NCBI GenBank assembly: GCA_963675665.1
Contig: OY776510.1
Location: forward strand, 4,032,001-4,096,000
From: Spirochaetia bacterium
GTDB taxonomy: Bacteria > Spirochaetota > Spirochaetia > UBA9216
DNA length: 64,000 bases
Direction of reading: 5' to 3'
Below the pieces are notes generated by a model, which saw only the letters and a program-made list of their open reading frames with translations, was not told the DNA's origin and did no database searches. The translations under genes and the position numbers were made by a program. Positions 6,986-18,004 of the stretch are shown here, one piece after another (within the stretch, counting starts at the first letter, position 1; every line of letters begins with the position of its first letter).

Positions 6986-8338
6986 TCAAATCCATTCCAG
7001 AAATCTGCAGATTATGCCGTTATTTTCAACAGCTTCAATTTTTGCTCTGCAGATAGTTCCATCTTTATTAATTATATCACATACTGTCGATTTTAAATAA
7101 TTTTCACTTGTTCCGTTCCATTTTTCACCGTTTTCGTCTTCTATAAGAACATCAACATCTCGACCAATCCATCCTGATGCATATTTCAGGTAATATTCGC
7201 CTGACAGCCGCCGCAATTCTCCCGTCCGCTGTCCTGATATACGTTCTGGAACCGGGTTTTTCATTTTCTCCGCAAGAGTTCCGGGCCTTGGTGAAAACGG
7301 AAAAACATGCAGATGGGCAAATTCGCATTCTTCAACCAGACTGAGGGTAAGCCCGTAATCCTCATCTGTTTCACCGGGAAAACCTGCAATAACATCCGCG
7401 GCCAGAAACGGATCGTCTTTTACGTTTCTCAGTGTTTTTACTGCATCTATTATCTTTGCACGATTGTTATGCCGCCGCATAAGCGAAAGGATCCTGTCGC
7501 TTCCGGATTGAACCGGTATATGAAAATGCGGGCACACTGCCGGACTGCTTACTGCAAGCGCCATTCTGTCGTCTATTGTTTCCGGTTCAAGAGACGAGAG
7601 TCTTATTCTTGCCGCCGGATGACCTCCGGGACCGTCAGTTCCGGCAATTACAGCAAGTTCGGTCAGAATACGGCTGAAATCATATCCTTGTGAATTATAA
7701 GAAGTTAAATTGACACCCGTCAGCACAATTTCCCGGTATCCTTTATCGAGCAAACCGCTGAACTGCCTTAAAACCTCTTCGGGCGGCAGGCTCACCCCGC
7801 GTCCCCTTGCGATTGTAACCCTGCAGTAAGCACAGCTGTTGTCGCATCCGTCCTGAATTTTCAGGAACGCCCGGGTATGATAATTGAAATCGACAGATTC
7901 ATACCAGAACCTGTCAGGATCCTGCAGCCCCTGGGAGGAGCCCCTCCCGAAGAAACCGCGCACAGCCCCGATTAAGCCGTCCCGGTCATCCTGCAGGTCC
8001 TTTAAAAACACGGGAAGCCTGCTAATCTCATCTTTTCTGTCATGCGGGACAACGACAACATTGCCGCCGAGGGAAACTTCTGCTTCATCAAGCTGAGCAT
8101 AGCAGCCGGTAACAAGAACAACCGAGCCGGGATGTTCGGTTGATAGTTTCCGGATCATCCTGCGGGCTTTCTGTTCAGCTTTCGAGGTTACCGTGCATGT
8201 GTTTATTATATAAAGATCAGCATCGCTGCGTACATCCTCAATAAAAAAACCCCGGCTGTCGAAGGACGATGCCAGGGCTTCACTTTCACATTGATTCAGC
8301 TTGCAGCCTAAGGTATATACAGCCGCTCTGAAATCCAT
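6986..8338 (-). CDS. mtaB: tRNA t6A37 methylthiotransferase
   Basis: TLGCKLNQCES, INTCTVT, radical-SAM KIQDGCDNSCAYC. Confidence 0.93.
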   Translation of the reverse strand: MDFRAAVYTLGCKLNQCESEALASSFDSRGFFIEDVRSDADLYIINTCTVTSKAEQKARRMIRKLSTEHPGSVVLVTGCYAQLDEAEVSLGGNVVVVPHDRKDEISRLPVFLKDLQDDRDGLIGAVRGFFGRGSSQGLQDPDRFWYESVDFNYHTRAFLKIQDGCDNSCAYCRVTIARGRGVSLPPEEVLRQFSGLLDKGYREIVLTGVNLTSYNSQGYDFSRILTELAVIAGTDGPGGHPAARIRLSSLEPETIDDRMALAVSSPAVCPHFHIPVQSGSDRILSLMRRHNNRAKIIDAVKTLRNVKDDPFLAADVIAGFPGETDEDYGLTLSLVEECEFAHLHVFPFSPRPGTLAEKMKNPVPERISGQRTGELRRLSGEYYLKYASGWIGRDVDVLIEDENGEKWNGTSENYLKSTVCDIINKDGTICRAKIEAVENNGIICRFLEWI

Positions 8339-8970
8339 TACCCGGCACCCAGCTTTTTCCTGACCCGGTCACGGCCCCTGACGGCTTCGGTATATGAAGA
8401 ATTAAGCTCTAATGATTTATTATATGCTTCCAGTGAATATTTCCAGTCTTCTGCCATCTCTCGTGCATAGCCCAGTCTTGACCACCACCTTGCTGAATTC
8501 GGAAAATGGTAAACCGCCGTTGTGAATGCGATATCGGCATGATTGTATTCACCGAGCCTGATGTAAATCTCACCCATAAAGTAATATGCAAGTTCGATTC
8601 TGTCGCCGGTCGGGGCAAGTACCGTATATTCTTCAAAATAATCGAGCGCTTCGAGATTTTTCCCAAGATAATAATATGCTTCCGCCGCTATCTCAATTAC
8701 GCGCGTGTCCCGGCGGGATATTTCAAGACCGGAAAGGCTTGAGTCCAACGCTTTCTGATAGTCCTCCAGTTTGATATAACTCCACCCCAGAACTACATAC
8801 GAATCCATATTCCTGGGCATCCGTTCAATTTCGGCCAGACAAATCTCAATAGCTTTATTGAAATCACCCTTTCTGTATTCGACCAGGGCATCTTCACGTT
8901 CCTGCGGGAACACTGTTGCGACTGCTGAAATGCTGAAGAACAGCAGAAAAACAATAATTTTATTCTTCAT
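8338..8970 (-). CDS. exported TPR protein
   Basis: Signal peptide plus about 4-5 TPR motifs. Confidence 0.85.
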   Translation of the reverse strand: MKNKIIVFLLFFSISAVATVFPQEREDALVEYRKGDFNKAIEICLAEIERMPRNMDSYVVLGWSYIKLEDYQKALDSSLSGLEISRRDTRVIEIAAEAYYYLGKNLEALDYFEEYTVLAPTGDRIELAYYFMGEIYIRLGEYNHADIAFTTAVYHFPNSARWWSRLGYAREMAEDWKYSLEAYNKSLELNSSYTEAVRGRDRVRKKLGAG

Positions 8971-9402: not shown

Positions 9403-10119
9403 TCAGAACAGCGACATTGTTTCATCAAGAGCTTTCTTCAGCCGGATACGCATTTCTCCGGTATGCGGATTGAATTTCTGCAGGTCGTGAAACAGCTGAA
9501 CAGGGTCGTTGCAGGTCTGCTCAACTATCTCCTGAAGCTTCCGGTACCCGAGAGTCGCTATGGCGCTGTCTTTCAGATTCAGCTCATTCAGCACCCTTCC
9601 GATAAAGTGGGTTATACCCTGGGTAAATGCGGCTTCAAGATCATGCTCATCCGGAGTCATTTTATGTATTTCCAAACCCATCCGTCTGAATACATCATTC
9701 CAGAGGGGCCCGCAACCGTTAATATCGCGGACTGTGTGAAATACCAGCGGAAGGCCTTTGATTCCGTTGCGGCCCGAATCAGGACCGAACATCGGGTGCG
9801 TTGCAATAATACCGCAGGTTTCCGGAAGATACTTGTTCATCAGCCGCGCCGGCTCGACCTTTACCGAACAGGTGTCGATTACCACAGCGTCCTGCTTAAG
9901 TACGGGCGCAATACGTTGAAGCACTTCTTCTACAGCGCTTATTGCGCAGCAAAGAAAGACTGTATCATAACCGGTCAGCTGCTCTTCACTTTCAATACGC
10001 CCTACTCCTGCAGGTAATTCCCTGCGGCTCCTGCTGTAACCGGCAACATCAAACCGGTCAGCCAGCAGAGATGCCCAAAAGGATCCGAAACGTCCCATAC
10101 CGTATACTGCTATCTTCAT
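9403..10119 (-). CDS. tyrA: prephenate/arogenate dehydrogenase
   Basis: GMGRFG Rossmann motif, DTCSVK, THPMFGP, EHD, TQGITH. Confidence 0.92.
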   Translation of the reverse strand: MKIAVYGMGRFGSFWASLLADRFDVAGYSRSRRELPAGVGRIESEEQLTGYDTVFLCCAISAVEEVLQRIAPVLKQDAVVIDTCSVKVEPARLMNKYLPETCGIIATHPMFGPDSGRNGIKGLPLVFHTVRDINGCGPLWNDVFRRMGLEIHKMTPDEHDLEAAFTQGITHFIGRVLNELNLKDSAIATLGYRKLQEIVEQTCNDPVQLFHDLQKFNPHTGEMRIRLKKALDETMSLF

Positions 10120-10307: not shown

Positions 10308-10337
10308 ACCCAACGATATTTGAGGAGATTCATTATA

Positions 10338-11333
10338 ATGGCTTTCAAAGAATTAATGAAAGAAAAAGCAAAAAAACTTCAAAAGAATCTTGTACTGCCC
10401 GAAGGAACTGAAACCCGGACCATGAAGGCTGCAAGAATTATCATCGATGAAGGACTTGCGGCATCAGTTTCACTTATTGGAAATGCTGATGATATTCAAG
10501 CTGCAGCAGCAGATGCAGGCGTAAACCTGAACGGCGTCACCATTGTTGAACCCAAAAAATCTGAAAACTTCAGTGCTTACGCTGCTGAATATTATGAACT
10601 GAGAAAGAAAAAGGGTATTACGGAAGAAGAAGCCGGAGAAGCTATAACTGATCCGCTGAAATGGGGCTCAATGATGGTCCGCCTCGGCGATGCGGATGCG
10701 ATGGTTGCCGGCGCTGAAAACTCGACCGGAAACGTTCTGAGGGCAGCTTTCACGATTATTAAAACAGCCCCGGGGGTAAAATCAGCCTCAAGCTGCTTTG
10801 TAATGTACATGCCGGATTCAGACTGGGGAGTCAACGGAAACATGATTTTTTCTGATTGTGCGACCATACCCAACCCTACCGCCGAACAGCTTTCCGAAAT
10901 TGCCATCGCGGCATCCGAATCATGTAAAAAATTCCTTGATGCGGAACCCTGCACAGCGATGCTTTCTTTCTCAACAAAAGGTTCAGCCAGCCATGAATAT
11001 GTCGACAAGGTTGTCGAAGCAACAAAACTTGCAAAAGAAAAACGGCCTGATCTTAATATCGACGGAGAACTTCAGCTTGACGCCGCTATTGTTCCTGCAA
11101 TAGGCAACAGCAAAGCCCCCGGTTCAAAGGTAGCAGGAAAGGCAAATGTTCTGGTTTTTCCCGACCTTCAGGCCGGAAATATCGGTTACAAACTTGTGCA
11201 GCGACTTGCCGGAGCAGATGCATACGGACCTTTCCTTCAGGGATTTGCAAAACCGGTCAGCGACCTTTCGCGCGGCTGCAGTGTCGATGACATAGTAACC
11301 ACTGCTGCTGTTACAATGGCACAGTCGGAATAA
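10338..11333 (+). CDS. pta: phosphate acetyltransferase
   Basis: [51 protein letters not shown]; GAGGAG RBS. Confidence 0.97.
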
Positions 11334-11393
11334 AAAAAGACCGCAAAAAACGGTCTTTAACAGTGAAAAAAGCTGCCGGAAGGCAGCTTTTTT
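11333..11393. terminator. two tandem terminator hairpins between convergent pta and the sugar operon
   Basis: AAAGACCG..CGGTCTTT and AAAAAGCTGCC-GGAA-GGCAGCTTTTTT. Confidence 0.8.
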
Positions 11394-12310
11394 TATTCCG
11401 TGTACAATTTGCCTGATATAAGGTAAAGATCTTTCCCGGGAGTTTTTCCTGAAAAGTATTCTGCAATCAGGGTAGTCAGCTCCTGCGCCATTGTATCAAA
11501 ATCCTGCTCGATTGTTCCGACAAATGGACCTTTCTTGCCTATTTCGGCCTTTGCAAAGTCGGTACCGTCTATTCCTACAACCTTAATCTCGGTTCTACCG
11601 GCGGCCTCAAGCGCCTGAACTGTTCCGTAAGCAGGTTCATCCCACCCGGCCCAGATGCCTGCAATAGAACCTTTACTGTTGGCGGTTATCAGGTCTTCGG
11701 CTATCTTCCTTGCATTATCAACCGGTCCGGGCACATCGATATGGAATTTATTAATTACCTTAATGCCGGGATAGCTGTCGAATACTTCCTGGGCACCGAC
11801 GGCCCTTGCGCGCACACCCGGATGCGGGTCATGAGTAAACATTATAACATTACCCTTTCCGCTTATTGTCTCGGCAAGCAGTTCTGCGGTTTTCTTTCCA
11901 AGATCAGCATTATCTGATGTGATATTAAGCACAACCCCGTCAGCCAGTCCGGCATCAAGACCGAAAACCGGGATCCCAGCTTCCTTTGCGGCGGCAAGGC
12001 CCTTGGTCATCTGGGCAGGGTCTCCCATTCCCAGAACAATCGCATCAACCTTCTGGGCGACTGCATCTTCAATTCGTGAGACCAGCATGCCGAAATCACC
12101 GGCAGTATCGGAAACATTTACCTTCCAGCCTTCGGCTGAGGCATCCTTCCTGAACTGCTCGATTACATAAGCTGTGGTTGCATTAGCCATATAGGGGGTG
12201 ACAACCGCTACTGTTTTCGAGTCTGCGGCAGCTTCTGATGTTCCTCCTGCAACTGCCGCCATTGCAGCGATCAGCAACACAAGTACTGAAACAATGATTC
12301 GTTTAATCAT
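11393..12310 (-). CDS. sugar/polyol ABC transporter substrate-binding protein (RbsB-like)
   Basis: Signal peptide AGG..E; KVDAIVL, GIPVFGLD, SDN..G, VVGIDG motifs. Confidence 0.92.
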   Translation of the reverse strand: MIKRIIVSVLVLLIAAMAAVAGGTSEAAADSKTVAVVTPYMANATTAYVIEQFRKDASAEGWKVNVSDTAGDFGMLVSRIEDAVAQKVDAIVLGMGDPAQMTKGLAAAKEAGIPVFGLDAGLADGVVLNITSDNADLGKKTAELLAETISGKGNVIMFTHDPHPGVRARAVGAQEVFDSYPGIKVINKFHIDVPGPVDNARKIAEDLITANSKGSIAGIWAGWDEPAYGTVQALEAAGRTEIKVVGIDGTDFAKAEIGKKGPFVGTIEQDFDTMAQELTTLIAEYFSGKTPGKDLYLISGKLYTE

Positions 12311-12374: not shown

Positions 12375-13880
12375 TTATAAACCCTTAATATCAGAAAAGG
12401 ATTCTTTTAAAACAGGATACAGTTTCCTGAAAACAGGACCGGCTTTTCTGTAGAACTCAGTCATGTCATTATCGGGAAAAACAACCGTTTCATCATTTCT
12501 AAAAGAACCGGGCAGTTCAAAGGAATCAAACCAGCCGCTTGCCTTTCCGGCAATAAGGAGGTTGCCTGTAAGACCTGCTTCTGAAGTTGCGGGCGAGAGT
12601 ATTACGCGGCAGCCGGTAACCGAAGCGATTATTTCTGTCCAGAGACTGTTGGATGCGCCCCCACCTGAAATCCTGATTTCCAGGCGTTCATGACTGCCCT
12701 CTGTAATCGTCCCGAGAATTGAATCAAGCGAATAAGCCACCCCCTCAAGAACAGCCCTGAACATTGCGCCTTTGCCCGTGCCCCTGTTCAGTCCGATAAA
12801 CGCCCCGCGGGCATCAGGGTCTCTGAACGGCGAACGCTCGCCGGACAGGTAAGGCAGGTAAAAAACCCCGTTGCTGCCTGGTTTGACGGCAGAAGCTTCT
12901 TCCGTAAGGGTATGGAAATCAGCTGACGTGCCGGTTGCGCCCGATAATCCGGAGAGTATCCCGGCGGCCCATTCCGTGTTTCCGCCGGCGGTTATCATTG
13001 AACCTATATTTATCACTTTTGAAGGATCCGGATGCTTCAAATTGAATATTCCTGTTGCAGGGTCAACAGTACGGTCACCTGTTGTTGTAATCCAGCCTGA
13101 AGTGCCAAGATAACATGAAAGAACACCGGCAACCCCGGAGCCCGCACCTATAGTCGAAGAGCCTGCGTCGCCGGCCCCGTGTAACACAGTCAGACCGGCC
13201 GGAAGTCCGGTAAGTCCTGAAGCTTCGGCCGAAACTTTTCCTGCCGGTTCATCCGCCCCCTGCAGAACAGGAAACCTTTCTGTGGAAATACCTATAAAAT
13301 CAGCAAGCCCGCTGTTCCATGAGTTTTTATCAAAATCCAGCAGCTGGGTTGTTGATGCATTGGTATAATCCGTTACAAAAGCCCCGGTAAGCTTCCAGCA
13401 GATATAATCATGCGCACCCATCAGAAAAAATGTTTCGTCGTCAGCAAGCTCCGGCCGGTTTTTTCTGAGCCACAGGAATTTTGAAGGAAGCCCCGCTGCA
13501 TCACTCAGGTTTGCCGAAGAGGTTATAATACGTTTTTCACCAAACTCACGGTGCAGAAACTTCAGCTCATCAGCAGCACGTGTATCTGAATACAATATGG
13601 CGTTTCCGATCGGGTGGCCGTCTTTGATGCAGACAAGGTCCTGCATTTGCCCGCTGAGAACAATAAGCTCAAAATCATTACGCTCAGATTGATTCAACAG
13701 CTCTTTTGTTCCTCTGTAGAAAGCGTTCCACCAGTGTTCAGGATCCTGCTCGGCTCTTGTTCCGTCGGTTATAACGGGGTAGTTTTCCGAAGCTGAGGCG
13801 AGAACTTCCCCGCCTTCAGTAATTATAGCCAGCTTTACAGCGGTAGTTCCGATATCGGCCGACAGAATAACACTTTTCAT
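12375..13880 (-). CDS. FGGY-family carbohydrate kinase (xylulokinase-like)
   Basis: DIGTTAVK, AEQDP..WW, SGQMQ, GAGD, LGTSG, LPYLSGERSP, SGGGA. Confidence 0.92.
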   Translation of the reverse strand: MKSVILSADIGTTAVKLAIITEGGEVLASASENYPVITDGTRAEQDPEHWWNAFYRGTKELLNQSERNDFELIVLSGQMQDLVCIKDGHPIGNAILYSDTRAADELKFLHREFGEKRIITSSANLSDAAGLPSKFLWLRKNRPELADDETFFLMGAHDYICWKLTGAFVTDYTNASTTQLLDFDKNSWNSGLADFIGISTERFPVLQGADEPAGKVSAEASGLTGLPAGLTVLHGAGDAGSSTIGAGSGVAGVLSCYLGTSGWITTTGDRTVDPATGIFNLKHPDPSKVINIGSMITAGGNTEWAAGILSGLSGATGTSADFHTLTEEASAVKPGSNGVFYLPYLSGERSPFRDPDARGAFIGLNRGTGKGAMFRAVLEGVAYSLDSILGTITEGSHERLEIRISGGGASNSLWTEIIASVTGCRVILSPATSEAGLTGNLLIAGKASGWFDSFELPGSFRNDETVVFPDNDMTEFYRKAGPVFRKLYPVLKESFSDIKGL

Positions 13881-14665
13881 GCAACCTCCAGGAACTGCCT
13901 GAACCGGGACAGATAACCCGAGATTTTGTTATCTCCGCCGATGACTGCTTTCAGAAAGGATGTGCCGACTATAACGGCGTCAGCGCCGGCCTTCTCTGCT
14001 TCAACCGCATCAGCCGGAGAGTTAATACCGAAACCGACGCCGACGGGAAGGCGTTCGGGCGCTGCCAGCCGCTTTGCCATATCAAGCCGTCTGAGAAACG
14101 ATTCTCCGACGGAGAATTGTCCCCCGGTCGGGCCTTCCGACGACTGAAGATAAAGAAAACCGCTTGTAAGGCCGATTATCTCTTTCATCTCTTTTTCAGA
14201 AAGTCCCGTTACCGCAAAACTGACAACCTCTACTCCTGTTTTCGAAGCCTCAACAAAAAGCTTTCTCCGGTTTTCCATGGTGATATCAGGAACAAGGACC
14301 GCACTGATTCCGCATTCCGCACAGTCGGAAACCAGTTCCCTTATTCCGTACTGAATAAGGGTATGCTCATAAAGCATCGTAATACCGTTAAGCCCGCAGG
14401 CGGTTATAATCTTTCCGGAATCAATGTTGAATGCCGAAATACTTCTGTCCGCTCTGGTCAGTTTTGAAAGTGTGCCTTTAATCAGTTCACCGTCAAGAAA
14501 GGGTGTAGCCGTCGGCATTCCGACCTCAATAAACTTCAGTCCGCCTTCGGCCAGTTGCCGGACTATACGGAGAAATCCGTCGTTGTCCGGAAAAAGCGCC
14601 GGAAGATACCCGATAAGAGGCGCCCTTTTTCGTTTTTCAATAAAATTGAATATTTCGTTTTTCAT
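13877..14665 (-). CDS. divergent stand-alone tryptophan synthase alpha-like TIM barrel
   Basis: IEVGMP (Glu49 equivalent), FLDG (Asp60 equivalent), VLVPD, GFLYL, GPTG, VGFGI, ADAVIVG. Confidence 0.85.
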   Translation of the reverse strand: MKNEIFNFIEKRKRAPLIGYLPALFPDNDGFLRIVRQLAEGGLKFIEVGMPTATPFLDGELIKGTLSKLTRADRSISAFNIDSGKIITACGLNGITMLYEHTLIQYGIRELVSDCAECGISAVLVPDITMENRRKLFVEASKTGVEVVSFAVTGLSEKEMKEIIGLTSGFLYLQSSEGPTGGQFSVGESFLRRLDMAKRLAAPERLPVGVGFGINSPADAVEAEKAGADAVIVGTSFLKAVIGGDNKISGYLSRFRQFLEVA

Positions 14666-15636
14666 CAGCCCTTCTTCTTGGCAAGACTTGAAACAAGGAC
14701 TGCCAGTATTATTATCATGCCGGTAAGGATCGATTGGACATAGGTGTTTATACCCAGAATATTAAGCCCGTTGCCCATCACCCCCATTATAAAAACCCCA
14801 AGCAGGGTCCCCCATACATTGGCCTCGCCTTCCCTGAATGCCGTCATTCCTAGAAAAACTGCTGCCGCTGCATTTAGCATAAACGGCGCGCCGGCCTGGG
14901 GATGCGCTGAATACAGGCGGCTTGTAAGCACAATTCCGCCGAGAGCAGCAAAAAATCCGGATATGCCGAAGGCCGCCATGCGAATCCTTCTTGTATTTAT
15001 TCCGGAAAGAAATGAAGCTTCCTCGTTGCCGCCAATCGCATAAAGCCTGCGCCCGTAAACCGTCTGTTCAACAAGGGTATAAATAATTACAAGTACCAGG
15101 AGCATTATCAAAACGGACACCGGAATAAATCCCAGATTCCCCTGCCCGATAAACCTGAAATTCTCCGGCAGTCCGAAAATTGTCGTCCCCTTCGACAAAA
15201 GAAGAGCGGCGCCCCCGTAGGCAGTCATGGTTGCCAGCGTACCTACAAAGGCCGACAGCCCCCCGTAAGCGATAAGCAGGCCATTCAACAGCCCAGCCGC
15301 TGTTCCGATTCCAAGAGCACAGATTATGCTCACAGCGGTGCCGGCGCCGGCCTGCATCATCATTGCGGCAATTATTCCGACCAGGCTTGATACCGCCCCT
15401 ACCGACAGGTCAAAATCACCCGTAATCATTACCACAGTCACGCCGGAAGCAACTATTGAAAGGGTTGCGACCTGTTCGATAATATTTCTCAGGTTTCTGG
15501 CCGACGGAAAAACATCCGGCCTGATCAGCGTAAAGATGATCATCAGCAGAATGAAACAAAGAAGTGTGCCCCAGGTTCTTATAAGTCTCACCGGGTTCAG
15601 TTTTTCAGTTCGGTATTTATTTTCTGTTAAATCCAT
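14665..15636 (-). CDS. sugar ABC transporter permease (RbsC-like)
   Basis: GDFDLSVG, FVGTL, YGRRLYAIGGNEEASFLSGI EAA motif. Confidence 0.93.
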   Translation of the reverse strand: MDLTENKYRTEKLNPVRLIRTWGTLLCFILLMIIFTLIRPDVFPSARNLRNIIEQVATLSIVASGVTVVMITGDFDLSVGAVSSLVGIIAAMMMQAGAGTAVSIICALGIGTAAGLLNGLLIAYGGLSAFVGTLATMTAYGGAALLLSKGTTIFGLPENFRFIGQGNLGFIPVSVLIMLLVLVIIYTLVEQTVYGRRLYAIGGNEEASFLSGINTRRIRMAAFGISGFFAALGGIVLTSRLYSAHPQAGAPFMLNAAAAVFLGMTAFREGEANVWGTLLGVFIMGVMGNGLNILGINTYVQSILTGMIIILAVLVSSLAKKKG

Positions 15637-15638
15637 TT

Positions 15639-17135
15639 TCAGTTTTTCCTTCCATAGCAAAAATTAAGATACTGCTCCTGATTTATTCCCGAGTTTTTTT
15701 CAACAAAAGTCTGTTTGCCTTCGAAAAGAAAAAGTATTCTGTCGCAAAGACCTAAAATCTCATTAAAATCGGAACTTACAAGCAGTACAGCCGCACCTGC
15801 GTCGGCTATTTTCCTGATTAGTGTATAAATCTCGAAGCGTGCTCCGACATCGACGCCTTTGGACGGCTCATCAAGCAGCAGTAGCCTGGGCGGGTTGAGA
15901 ATCGTTTTAGCAAAAACAACTTTCTGCTGGTTACCCCCCGAGAGAGTTCCGGCATGGTTTCTGTAATCGGCTGTTTTAAGTTTAACATCCTTCCCCACGG
16001 ACTCTGCGGCCTGCCTGAGCTGCTTGTGTCTCAAAAACCCAAGCGAGGCAAGAGAATCAAGATACATAAGGGAAATATTGTCATAGATTGCCCTGTTCAG
16101 AACAAGCCCCTGTTTACGTCTTTCCTCGGGCACAAGTACAACGCCCTGCTTTACCGCCTGTTTGGGAGAGGAAGGCTTGTATTCACTGCCGGAAAGCTGC
16201 ATACTGCCGTTTTCAAGCTTTCTGGCCCCGAAGATAGTCTCAAGCAGCTCAGTCCGGCCGGCCCCGACAAGACCGCCTATCCCCAGGATTTCACCGCTTT
16301 TCACATCGAAATTGATATTATTGATATCGGAATTTCGGCAATTTTCCATTCTGAAGACAGTATTCCCCCGTACAGACTTTTTTTCCGGAAAAACCGACCC
16401 GAGATCACGGCCTATCATCAGTGATATCAGTTTGTCTTTATCGAGTTCCGATGCCGGACTTTCTTTAACAACCTGCCCGTCTCTCATCACCGTTACGCTG
16501 TCACAGATTCTCAGGACATCATCAAGATTGTGCGACACATAGACTATGGTCCGCCCCTGCTGCTTCAGTACGCTTATGACCTCAAACAGCTTCTCCTTCT
16601 CGATATCAGTCAAAGCAGTTGCCGGTTCATCCATAAAATAAATGGAACCGTCTACCGCAAACCCCCTGGCTACTGCAATCATTGCCCTTTCAACAGCCGA
16701 CAGATAGGATACAGGCCTGTTTATCGGGATTTTCATATTCAGCCTGTCAAGGATTTCAACTGTTCTTTTTCTCAGCCCTCTCCAGTTGATGAGCCTGCCG
16801 GGTTTTTCAGGGTAATCATGACCGAGAAATATATTTTCACATGCATTGAAATAATCAATCAGGTTCAGTTCCTGGTGAATAAAACAAAGCCCGGCATCTG
16901 AAGAATCTCTTGCTGTTTTTATATCGATCTTTTTACCGTTAACAAGAATGTCGCCTGAATCAGGTTTAACCACACCTGCAAGAGATTTTATCAAAGTTGA
17001 TTTCCCCGCTCCGTTCTCTCCTACCAGACCGTGTACGGTACCCTTTTCAAAATCGAGATCCACGCCTTTGAGTGCATGGACACCCGCGTAGGATTTACTC
17101 AGACCTTTTACGGTCAGTGCTGAAGTCTGCTTCAT
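15639..17135 (-). CDS. sugar ABC transporter ATPase (RbsA-like, double NBD)
   Basis: GENGAGKST, MDEPAT, LSGGNQQK, LDEPSKGVDVGA. Confidence 0.95.
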   Translation of the reverse strand: MKQTSALTVKGLSKSYAGVHALKGVDLDFEKGTVHGLVGENGAGKSTLIKSLAGVVKPDSGDILVNGKKIDIKTARDSSDAGLCFIHQELNLIDYFNACENIFLGHDYPEKPGRLINWRGLRKRTVEILDRLNMKIPINRPVSYLSAVERAMIAVARGFAVDGSIYFMDEPATALTDIEKEKLFEVISVLKQQGRTIVYVSHNLDDVLRICDSVTVMRDGQVVKESPASELDKDKLISLMIGRDLGSVFPEKKSVRGNTVFRMENCRNSDINNINFDVKSGEILGIGGLVGAGRTELLETIFGARKLENGSMQLSGSEYKPSSPKQAVKQGVVLVPEERRKQGLVLNRAIYDNISLMYLDSLASLGFLRHKQLRQAAESVGKDVKLKTADYRNHAGTLSGGNQQKVVFAKTILNPPRLLLLDEPSKGVDVGARFEIYTLIRKIADAGAAVLLVSSDFNEILGLCDRILFLFEGKQTFVEKNSGINQEQYLNFCYGRKN

Positions 17136-17954: not shown

Positions 17955-18004
17955 TATAGACTTCTAGATGTCTGTATTTTAAATATATATTGACAATCTG
18001 TCAA
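17955..18004 (-). promoter_or_regulatory. sigma70 promoter and palindromic operator of the GntR operon
   Basis: TTGACA(18004-17999)-17 bp-TAAAAT(17981-17976); palindrome TATAGACTTCT/AGATGTCTGTA at 17955-17976 over the predicted +1. Confidence 0.7.

Follow-up and report, generated by a model that had tools for sequence, protein, structure and literature searches.

What is a homologue of tryptophan synthase's alpha subunit (TrpA) doing between a sugar-type permease gene and a carbohydrate kinase gene? The question is raised by a gene in a 64,000-nucleotide stretch of a Spirochaetia bacterium genome (assembly GCA_963675665.1, contig OY776510.1, positions 4,032,001 to 4,096,000; the window, below). 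The first-pass annotation, made by eye, had proposed that its product keeps the catalytic residues of TrpA, has lost the motifs that contact the beta subunit (TrpB), and is a TrpB-independent lyase analogous to the plant enzymes BX1 and IGL. With a probability that we put at about 55%, the enzyme is a TrpB-independent retro-aldol lyase which splits the phosphorylated product of the neighbouring kinase. The strongest evidence on the role of the gene is its operon context, which lies outside the gene's own coordinates.

Six closely packed genes are read in the same direction here, and the TrpA-like gene takes the fourth place among them (Table 1). The stop codon of the permease and the start codon of the TrpA-like gene share one nucleotide (TGATG), and the ATG of the kinase, with a GGAGG 8 nt upstream, overlaps the TrpA-like stop codon (ATGA); judging from these overlaps, the gene is translationally coupled within the six-gene unit. 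Among species-representative genomes, three Spirochaetota loci (L008, L009, L010) and one of Chloroflexota (Bellilinea, L012) contain the identical six genes in the identical order, i.e., GntR-type regulator, ATPase, permease, TrpA-like protein, FGGY-family kinase and substrate-binding protein, and two metagenome loci (L087, L088) also hold the full cassette. The metagenome scan otherwise gave mostly ordinary trpB-linked TrpAs, together with two non-canonical ones (L085/L086) at which the contig ends.

In a sample of the host class, a paralogue-level match (E <=1e-45) was found in 16 of 401 genomes, spread over 12 of 156 genera. The FGGY kinase directly follows the TrpA-like gene in 14 of these 16, and in the remaining two the contig stops at the gene, with permease and ATPase preceding it; trpB adjoins the gene in none of the 16. 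All nine longer regions examined show the cassette with unrelated flanks (at one of them, L180, a binding-protein gene downstream of the kinase was not detected). Within the host family the paralogue is present in two of 11 genomes and any TrpA match in eight of 11, and in the 401-genome phylum sample the host alone scored above 131 bits. Given this patchy occurrence and the unrelated flanks, the module is rare, patchy and self-contained.

In some lineages kinase and TrpA-like protein are joined in one polypeptide. The 759-residue fusion P0063 has its TrpA-like part at residues 13-247, followed by FGGY_N and FGGY_C, and clustering all fusions (92 sequences of 689-765 aa) at 90% identity gives 11 clusters, the ten besides that of P0063 showing 64-79% identity over the TrpA part. 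They are named 'tryptophan synthase subunit alpha' by NCBI, in Sphaerochaeta and Sphaerochaetaceae metagenome-assembled genomes (MAGs), and 'xylulokinase' by JGI, and at one locus (L179) a fusion gene lies within an otherwise identical cassette. The model of a further fusion (P0211, 10-row alignment) was poor, with a predicted local distance difference test score (pLDDT) of 57.7 and a predicted template-modelling score (pTM) of 0.43, and is uninformative on domain packing. Two Mycobacteriales MAGs (L046:59-5822, L047:426-6255) keep the GntR/UTRA regulator, the TrpA-like protein and the FGGY kinase with the importer class swapped for an NMT1/THI5-like binding protein, a BPD_transp_1 permease and a single ABC ATPase; the constant core is therefore regulator, kinase and TrpA-like enzyme. 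Translational coupling and natural fusion, both read from the arrangement of the genes, point to the FGGY kinase as the partner of the TrpA-like protein.

As to what the cassette handles, the kinase is xylulokinase-like but stays under the equivalog cut-off (TIGR01312, 316.6 vs 380.25 bits), and on the model of LsrK, the autoinducer-2 (AI-2) kinase, it reaches 120.3 bits against a cut-off of 528; among solved structures it is closest to xylulose, gluconate and glycerol kinases. The RbsA-, RbsB- and XylB-like scores of the cassette proteins are all under the equivalog cut-offs. The closest solved homologue of the binding protein is 4wt7_A (E 8.7e-29), a substrate-binding protein of Agrobacterium vitis described, in the available part of PMC10318746, with bound allitol, an open-chain polyol.

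The product of the gene is, according to its AlphaFold2 model, a TrpA-fold protein. The model (21-row alignment) has a pLDDT of 94.6 and a pTM of 0.92, and its top Foldseek matches are TrpA and BX1 chains with template-modelling (TM) scores of 0.86-0.89 at 19-26% identity. Pfam Trp_syntA, PF00290, matches residues 9-241 with 125.1 bits (cut-off 27), and the NCBIfam trpA model TIGR00262 is passed narrowly (116.4 bits, cut-off 102.35), as against 191.5 bits for the canonical TrpA of the host. With phmmer, 38 distinct sequences of solved structures were matched, all of them TrpA or BX1 chains apart from a TrpA-TrpB fusion construct and a weak HisF match; a reconstructed ancestral TrpA comes first (5ey5_A, E 5.8e-29), and E values were 9.1e-21 and 1.9e-20 for BX1 (1tjr_A, 1rd5_A) and 5.9e-13 for Salmonella TrpA (1a50_A). 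Within the kinase-linked clade there are also His_biosynth and ThiG-type Pfam matches, which are weak.

The 5.15-Mb host genome carries an operon of trpE, a fused trpC-trpF, trpB and trpA at C1:5099460-5105302, about 1.05 Mb from the TrpA-like gene, and the canonical trpA product of this operon (246 aa) contains PFSDPSADGPVI. Since a full trp operon is present elsewhere, the host does not need the TrpA-like gene for tryptophan, and the earlier view that it is not the TrpA of the tryptophan pathway is borne out. The genome has a second, orphan trpB at C1:2904590-2905732 (L004:1483-2679, - strand; 398 aa, TIGR00263 528.8 bits), whose product is 48% identical to the TrpB of the operon and whose neighbours are a class I/II aminotransferase gene and a Mur-ligase-like gene; it may be a stand-alone indole-scavenging TrpB. 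Orthologues of it (at least 83% identity) are found in seven of 11 genomes of the family, as against two of 11 for the cassette, and the idea that the orphan trpB travels with the cassette was rejected on these counts.

Residues were numbered by HMMER alignment to solved TrpAs, the numbers of 5ey5_A being those of Salmonella in the stretches concerned, and this alignment reproduces the one by eye. E47, D58, Y172 (in GFLYLQ) and T180/G181 (in EGPTGG) pair with Glu49, Asp60, Tyr175 and Thr183/Gly184 of the Salmonella enzyme; the phosphate-site and pocket residues G211-F212-G213-I214 and V233-G234-T235-S236 are retained, with G234-T235 equivalent to Gly234-Ser235, and M97, Y99 and P126 are likewise present. 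The available part of PMC8376405 lists the pocket of Salmonella TrpA for indole-3-glycerol phosphate (IGP) as Glu49, Asp60, Leu/Met100, Ala/Pro/Val129, Tyr175, Gly211, Phe212, Gly213, Ser233, Gly234 and Ser235, and all 11 listed residues are present or conservatively replaced in our protein (E47, D58, M97, P126, Y172, G211, F212, G213, V233, G234 and T235).

Loop 2 and the interface are different. Here PTATPFLDGELIK replaces the canonical PFSDPLADGPTIQ (T54 for Asp56, K63 for Gln65), Y99-E100-H101 stands at Tyr102-x-Asn104, and A23-L24-F25-P26 stands at AGDP. As a canonical reference we used 50 TrpA open reading frames whose sole criterion was an adjoining trpB. Among these, Asp56 is 100% conserved, Asn104 84%, and Phe54, Ser55, Ala59 and Pro62 84-98%, and conservation of Gln65 and of the 'GD' of AGDP is below 80%; the host's own canonical TrpA has AGYP and VIES. 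Of the changes pointed out by the first-pass annotation, those at Asp56 and Asn104 are therefore real departures, as are those at Phe54, Ser55, Ala59 and Pro62, which it had not singled out, whereas those at Gln65 and AGDP are not diagnostic, because both vary among canonical TrpAs, the host's included. At positions F54, S55, D56, A59, P62, N104, D130 and P156 the protein reads T, A, T, L, E, H, D (kept) and T, and R162 is also lost. Asp56 is the residue that we take to form a salt bridge with betaLys167 at the TrpA/TrpB interface. Asn104, Ala103, Phe107 and Asp130 are alpha/beta interface positions of TrpA in the accessible text of PMC8187860.

For the cassette as a whole, 16 TrpA-like proteins were picked by cassette context alone (pairwise identity 26-100%, median 34%). 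All 16 retain Glu49, Asp60, Gly61, Tyr102, Gly172-Phe173, Tyr175, Thr183, Gly184, Gly211-Phe212-Gly213, Asp229 and Gly234, and this invariance of catalytic and pocket residues indicates selection on catalysis. None retains Phe54, Ala59, Ala71, Asn104, Ile127, Pro156 or Arg162; Ser55, Pro62 and Pro96 are retained in one copy, and Asp56 and Asp130 in four, which means that the tested loop-2 and interface columns stand at 0-4 of 16 vs 84-100% in the 50 trpB-linked TrpAs. There are also gains specific to the clade: position 177 (Salmonella numbering) is Gln in all 16 and in 0% of canonical TrpAs, and Gly21, Pro24, Leu45, Arg193 and Asp219 are further examples. The invariant columns of the clade contain no Lys and no metal-binding set, which makes aldolase action through a Schiff base or a metal unlikely and leaves acid/base chemistry of the TrpA type as the likely mode; a class I or II aldolase mechanism was rejected on this ground. 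With the interface residues lost, the pocket kept and trpB beside none of the 16 genes in the class sample, the sequences support the first-pass idea of TrpB independence indirectly, and the TrpA-like enzyme most likely works without TrpB.

A word-indexed search returned 57 proteins at E <=1e-10: the window product itself at 99% identity, then 15 proteins at 38-49% (one of them named as a Spirochaetales MAG protein), then identities of 37% and 28%, and thereafter ordinary TrpAs. An exhaustive profile search gave 6790 matches at E <=0.001, where about 27 representatives (50% identity) scored above 180 bits and graded into canonical TrpAs at about 120-160 bits. Two composite proteins seen in passing, P0141 (541 aa; TrpA, prephenate dehydratase and ACT domain) and P0078 (630 aa; a tandem or duplicated TrpA-containing protein), have the canonical loop-2 motif.

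Trees were built from 88 hand-picked rows of about 290 (47 non-canonical and 41 canonical, 28 of the latter derived from loci and 25 of these with trpB seen beside them); they are unrooted, come from 'quick' searches, and include some rows of deviant composition. All 41 canonical bacterial and archaeal rows fall to the same side of a branch supported by a Shimodaira-Hasegawa-like approximate likelihood ratio (SH-aLRT) of 97 under LG+G4 and 95 under LG+C20 with posterior mean site frequencies (PMSF). The window protein falls within a 20-row clade (supports 99 and 97), and the canonical TrpAs of the host family form a separate tight clade (support 100). Forcing the eight-row core clade of the window protein together with the seven TrpAs of the host family cost 67.5 log-likelihood units and was rejected by the approximately unbiased (AU) test (p-AU 0.002), which was run after the tree had been seen. 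In these sequence trees the paralogue is outside the canonical TrpA clade, and it does not cluster within spirochaete TrpA, in agreement with the first-pass annotation. The host-family canonical TrpAs (L001:1483-2223 = C1:5099460-5100200; L055-L062) are themselves unusual: trpB-linked, they make a long-branched clade (length 0.8, support 100) with EW(V/I)Y for GF.Y before Tyr175, IMAGFGI, and VIE(S/L) for.IQ.

What follows on the reaction, on its independence of TrpB, on flux direction and on substrate identity is inferred. FGGY kinases phosphorylate the terminal hydroxyl of glycerol, xylulose and related compounds. We propose that the ABC system would import a compound with a terminal glycerol-like (CHOH-CHOH-CH2OH) tail, that the FGGY kinase would phosphorylate its primary (terminal) hydroxyl, and that the TrpA-like enzyme, second and last of the module, would split the kinase product by the retro-aldol chemistry of TrpA; the Glu49 equivalent would serve as acid/base, and the equivalent of Asp60 would hold the leaving group. 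The expected products would be D-glyceraldehyde-3-phosphate, which could enter glycolysis, and a free leaving group needing no dedicated enzyme. Since the cassette holds no third enzyme, this second product should be directly usable or expendable, and indole would fit, because TrpB can consume indole and every carrier genome has a TrpB.

As the indole pocket is nearly unchanged, the likeliest substrate would be (indol-3-yl)glycerol phosphate, or else a (hetero)aryl-glycerol phosphate close to it, and indole or an arene like it would be released. In TrpA, Asp60 holds the indole N-H; a leaving group that is indole-like, or another electron-rich (hetero)aryl, is favoured over a simple sugar fragment because the Asp60 equivalent and the Phe212/Tyr175/Leu/Met100 pocket are kept and Schiff-base or metal machinery is missing. 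That the substrate is IGP itself is a tentative suggestion, which we consider possible but would not expect.

Several points weigh against a TrpB-independent lyase acting on such a substrate. A TrpB-free carrier was sought, and TrpB was matched in each of the 15 other genomes with the paralogue (in 14 of them above the cut-off); as all carriers encode TrpB, no natural case proves TrpB independence. Because the tree has no root and the branches of the paralogues are longer, it places them 'outside the canonical clade' and does not make them 'older'. Near the active site the clade has its own residues, namely Gln177 and Leu for Ile127, each in 16 of 16, and Leu, Phe or Met for Ala59, and therefore the substrate could differ from IGP. 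Plain sugars or polyols are what RbsB-type binding proteins and XylB-like kinases usually deal with, and to our knowledge indole-3-glycerol is not an abundant nutrient. Finally, the equilibrium of the TrpA reaction favours IGP, and the catabolic direction needs removal of the products.

The competitor that survives best is that the TrpA fold serves other chemistry, in which the protein acts as an isomerase, an epimerase or another lyase on a kinase-made sugar or polyol phosphate without an aromatic part, or that it processes a phosphorylated AI-2-like dione; such other activities are seen elsewhere in the ribulose-phosphate-binding barrel superfamily. This we hold to be rather unlikely, although it deserves to be taken seriously: transporter and kinase resemble ordinary sugar or polyol systems (with RbsA, RbsB and XylB scores below the cut-offs), the weak His_biosynth and ThiG-type matches fit it, and the polar Gln177 lies beside the active-site Tyr. 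The layout of FGGY kinase, CUT2-type ABC importer and GntR regulator is moreover lsr-like, with weak matches to the LsrA, LsrC, LsrD and LsrK models, and the nearest solved binding protein binds allitol, as far as the available text of PMC10318746 goes. However, the residues of the indole subpocket and the acid/base pair are all kept across about 26% pairwise identity, which is hard to explain if an aromatic pocket is unused, and a conserved Lys or metal site for a classical aldolase or isomerase is absent. For AI-2 in particular, the cassettes examined contain no LsrF- or LsrG-like gene, and the kinase scores 120 bits on the AI-2 model vs 317 on XylB.

Much less probable is a redundant ordinary TrpA which pairs with the TrpB of the operon or the orphan TrpB for tryptophan, its place in a sugar operon being incidental. 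Such a reading can draw on the passing of the NCBI trpA equivalog, on the intact active site, on relatives named 'tryptophan synthase subunit alpha' in their sources, on the unlinked second trpB and on the TrpB found in all paralogue-bearing genomes. It does not explain why the linkage to kinase and transporter is conserved across phyla, with kinase fusion in some lineages, nor why residues conserved to 84-100% in trpB-linked TrpAs, the interface included, were lost; the separate tree position with the AU rejection, and an orphan TrpB that is not co-distributed with the cassette (seven vs two of 11 family genomes), also speak against it. Least of all do we expect the protein to be a subunit that regulates or scaffolds the FGGY kinase without catalysis of its own, which would turn the case of Chlamydia TrpA round. 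Coupling and fusion to the kinase could be cited for this, as could the precedent in PMC8376405 (accessible part) of a TrpA retained in an allosteric role; but Chlamydia TrpA lost pocket glycines and Phe212 according to the same text, whereas here catalytic and pocket residues are invariant in all 16.

If the preferred reading, a TrpB-independent retro-aldol lyase, is carried further, the kinase-linked TrpA-like proteins could together be an unrecognised bacterial family of (hetero)aryl-glycerol-phosphate lyases, each with a dedicated FGGY kinase, for a two-step harvest of C3 units from imported aryl-glycerols; this wider proposal is speculative and we lean against it as it stands. Anaerobic Spirochaetota, Chloroflexota and some Actinomycetota would thereby gain glyceraldehyde-3-phosphate, with indole or a phenol set free. 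Candidate substrates would be indole-3-glycerol or, as a bolder guess, 4-hydroxyphenyl- or guaiacyl-glycerols from lignin, which might be cleaved after ipso-protonation, the parallel between tyrosine phenol-lyase and tryptophanase being the model for this idea.

Table 1. Features of the six-gene unit and its flanks, with positions in the window.
Feature	Position	Strand	Evidence and remarks
Promoter-like site TTGACA-17-TAAAAT, 11/12	17976..18004	-	Consensus match only; 40 nt upstream of regulator gene
GntR/HutC-type regulator with UTRA effector domain, 266 aa	17136..17936	-	Pfam GntR 65.1, UTRA 62.9 bits
Double-domain sugar-type ABC ATPase, 498 aa	15639..17135	-	Pfam ABC_tran twice; RbsA-like 474.6 bits, below cut-off 745
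ABC permease, 331 aa, BPD_transp_2	14665..15660	-	Pfam 127.9 bits
TrpA-like protein, 262 aa, ATG start	13877..14665	-	Glu47/Asp58 and phosphate site kept, loop 2/interface changed
FGGY-family carbohydrate kinase, 501 aa	12375..13880	-	Pfam FGGY_N 165.4, FGGY_C 108.4 bits
Periplasmic sugar/polyol-type substrate-binding protein, 305 aa, Peripla_BP_4	11393..12310	-	Pfam 145.1 bits
Terminator-like hairpin, 9-bp stem then T run	11336..11358	-	Consensus match only; best of region, after binding-protein gene
Phosphate acetyltransferase gene (pta, PTA_PTB)	10320-11333	+	Flanks downstream end of cassette
Prephenate-dehydrogenase-like short open reading frame	9403-10119	-	Named by reading of translation; beside downstream end of cassette

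Promoter-like sites in the region number 11, vs 9.6 expected from shuffles, and the 11/12 site in Table 1 is the best of them. The gene pta also follows the cassette at L008, in the same genus, so that the insertion site is common to both carriers in the genus. At the Bellilinea locus a DDE transposase gene lies directly upstream of the cassette (L012:3349-4395), consistent with horizontal spread. A Spirochaetaceae MAG has a decayed copy of the cassette (L011:8031-10389; also G527, L170) with the TrpA-like protein, the kinase and the binding protein truncated to 175, 449 and 155 aa, and with no regulator, ATPase or permease upstream. The TrpA-like proteins of the two Mycobacteriales loci have GY(V/I)M at the Tyr175 site and branch apart from the main clade. 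In Chloroflexia MAGs (L042, L043, L044, L045, L048, L050; match near 7950-8800) there are divergent TrpA-like proteins without trpB which have lost Tyr175 and Thr183 and replaced Gly61 (YIDT/FVDS); their neighbours are GntR, creatininase-family, DHDPS-family aldolase, gluconolactonase, PTE-family and EIIC-GAT proteins, and this group probably has a different function, perhaps in sugar-acid metabolism.

Should the proposal be true, the cassette would be a new catabolic pathway, probably for a new nutrient or signal compound, and the first catabolic use of TrpA chemistry; a bacterial TrpA lineage would have given up TrpB in favour of a sugar-type kinase, to the point of fusion with it. TrpA is a textbook enzyme that barely works without its partner, and a second, independent natural solution for TrpB-independent TrpA activity would be a useful blueprint for enzyme engineers. 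If indole were the product, there would be a bacterial source of this signal independent of tryptophanase. The names 'tryptophan synthase subunit alpha', or 'xylulokinase' in the case of fusions, would then be a systematic misannotation, which could mislead metabolic reconstructions of tryptophan prototrophy. The full-text literature, subscription-only papers and supplements being outside this scope, yielded no account of a kinase-linked TrpA paralogue from bacteria, nor, in the same scope, any relevant text linking tryptophan synthase alpha or indole-glycerol with FGGY kinases or xylulokinase; the only natural stand-alone forms of TrpA found in the literature searched are plant BX1, IGL and INS. 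Bacterial tryptophanases and plant IGLs are the only natural routes to indole named in the available part of PMC9100643.

Compared with canonical TrpA (Salmonella/E. coli; LBCA-TS, 5ey5_A; M. tuberculosis, 5tcf), the TrpA-like protein has the same (beta-alpha)8 fold (TM 0.86-0.89) and shares Glu49/Asp60, Tyr175, Thr183, Gly184, Phe212 and the phosphate-binding glycines. It differs in that its gene, flanked by a permease gene and an FGGY kinase gene, has no linkage to trpB or a trp operon, in the loss of F54, S55, D56, A59, P62, N104, P156 and R162, and in its position outside the canonical clade at about 20-26% identity. The archaeal 'TrpA2' (Merkl 2007, PMC1854888) is, in the accessible text, a subgroup defined by indels and interface positions, found in trp operons and partnering TrpB2, and it is unrelated to the kinase-linked clade.

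Plant BX1, IGL and INS are described, in the parts of PMC11574760 and PMC9100643 available to us, as TrpA homologues with identical catalytic residues that are TrpB-independent and release free indole. The TrpA fold and the intact catalytic dyad are found in our protein as well, and stand-alone release of indole would be an analogy. As a statement on function the first-pass comparison with BX1/IGL can stand, but not as one on lineage: the bacterial proteins form a separate deep clade and are no recent derivative, and descent from plant tryptophan synthase alpha was not seen, as the scores of BX1 chains do not exceed those of bacterial or ancestral TrpAs; the clade is bacterial, and the tree had no plant rows. 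BX1 is 63% identical to ZmTrpA and is a recent plant TrpA offshoot that makes secondary metabolites from endogenous IGP, according to the same available text of PMC11574760, whereas the bacterial clade sits in a cassette of uptake and kinase genes, which would imply catabolism of an imported compound.

The operons of the lsr type, and FGGY operons for polyols and pentuloses, follow a like logic of RbsB-type ABC importer, FGGY kinase, repressor and downstream splitting enzyme. In contrast to lsr (LsrK, CUT2 importer, LsrG/LsrF), the single downstream enzyme here is a TrpA homologue, and the kinase scores 317 bits on XylB vs 120 on LsrK; membership of the lsr system was rejected, with LsrF and LsrG absent from the six-gene unit and the LsrK cut-off missed. 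Chlamydia trachomatis TrpA is, in the accessible part of PMC8376405, a catalytically impaired, allosteric partner of TrpB which carries G211R, F212R, G213D and G234K. Both it and the kinase-linked protein are TrpA homologues whose role has shifted from the textbook one, and they are mirror images of each other: in Chlamydia the pocket is broken and the partnership with TrpB kept, while here the pocket is kept and the interface residues are lost.

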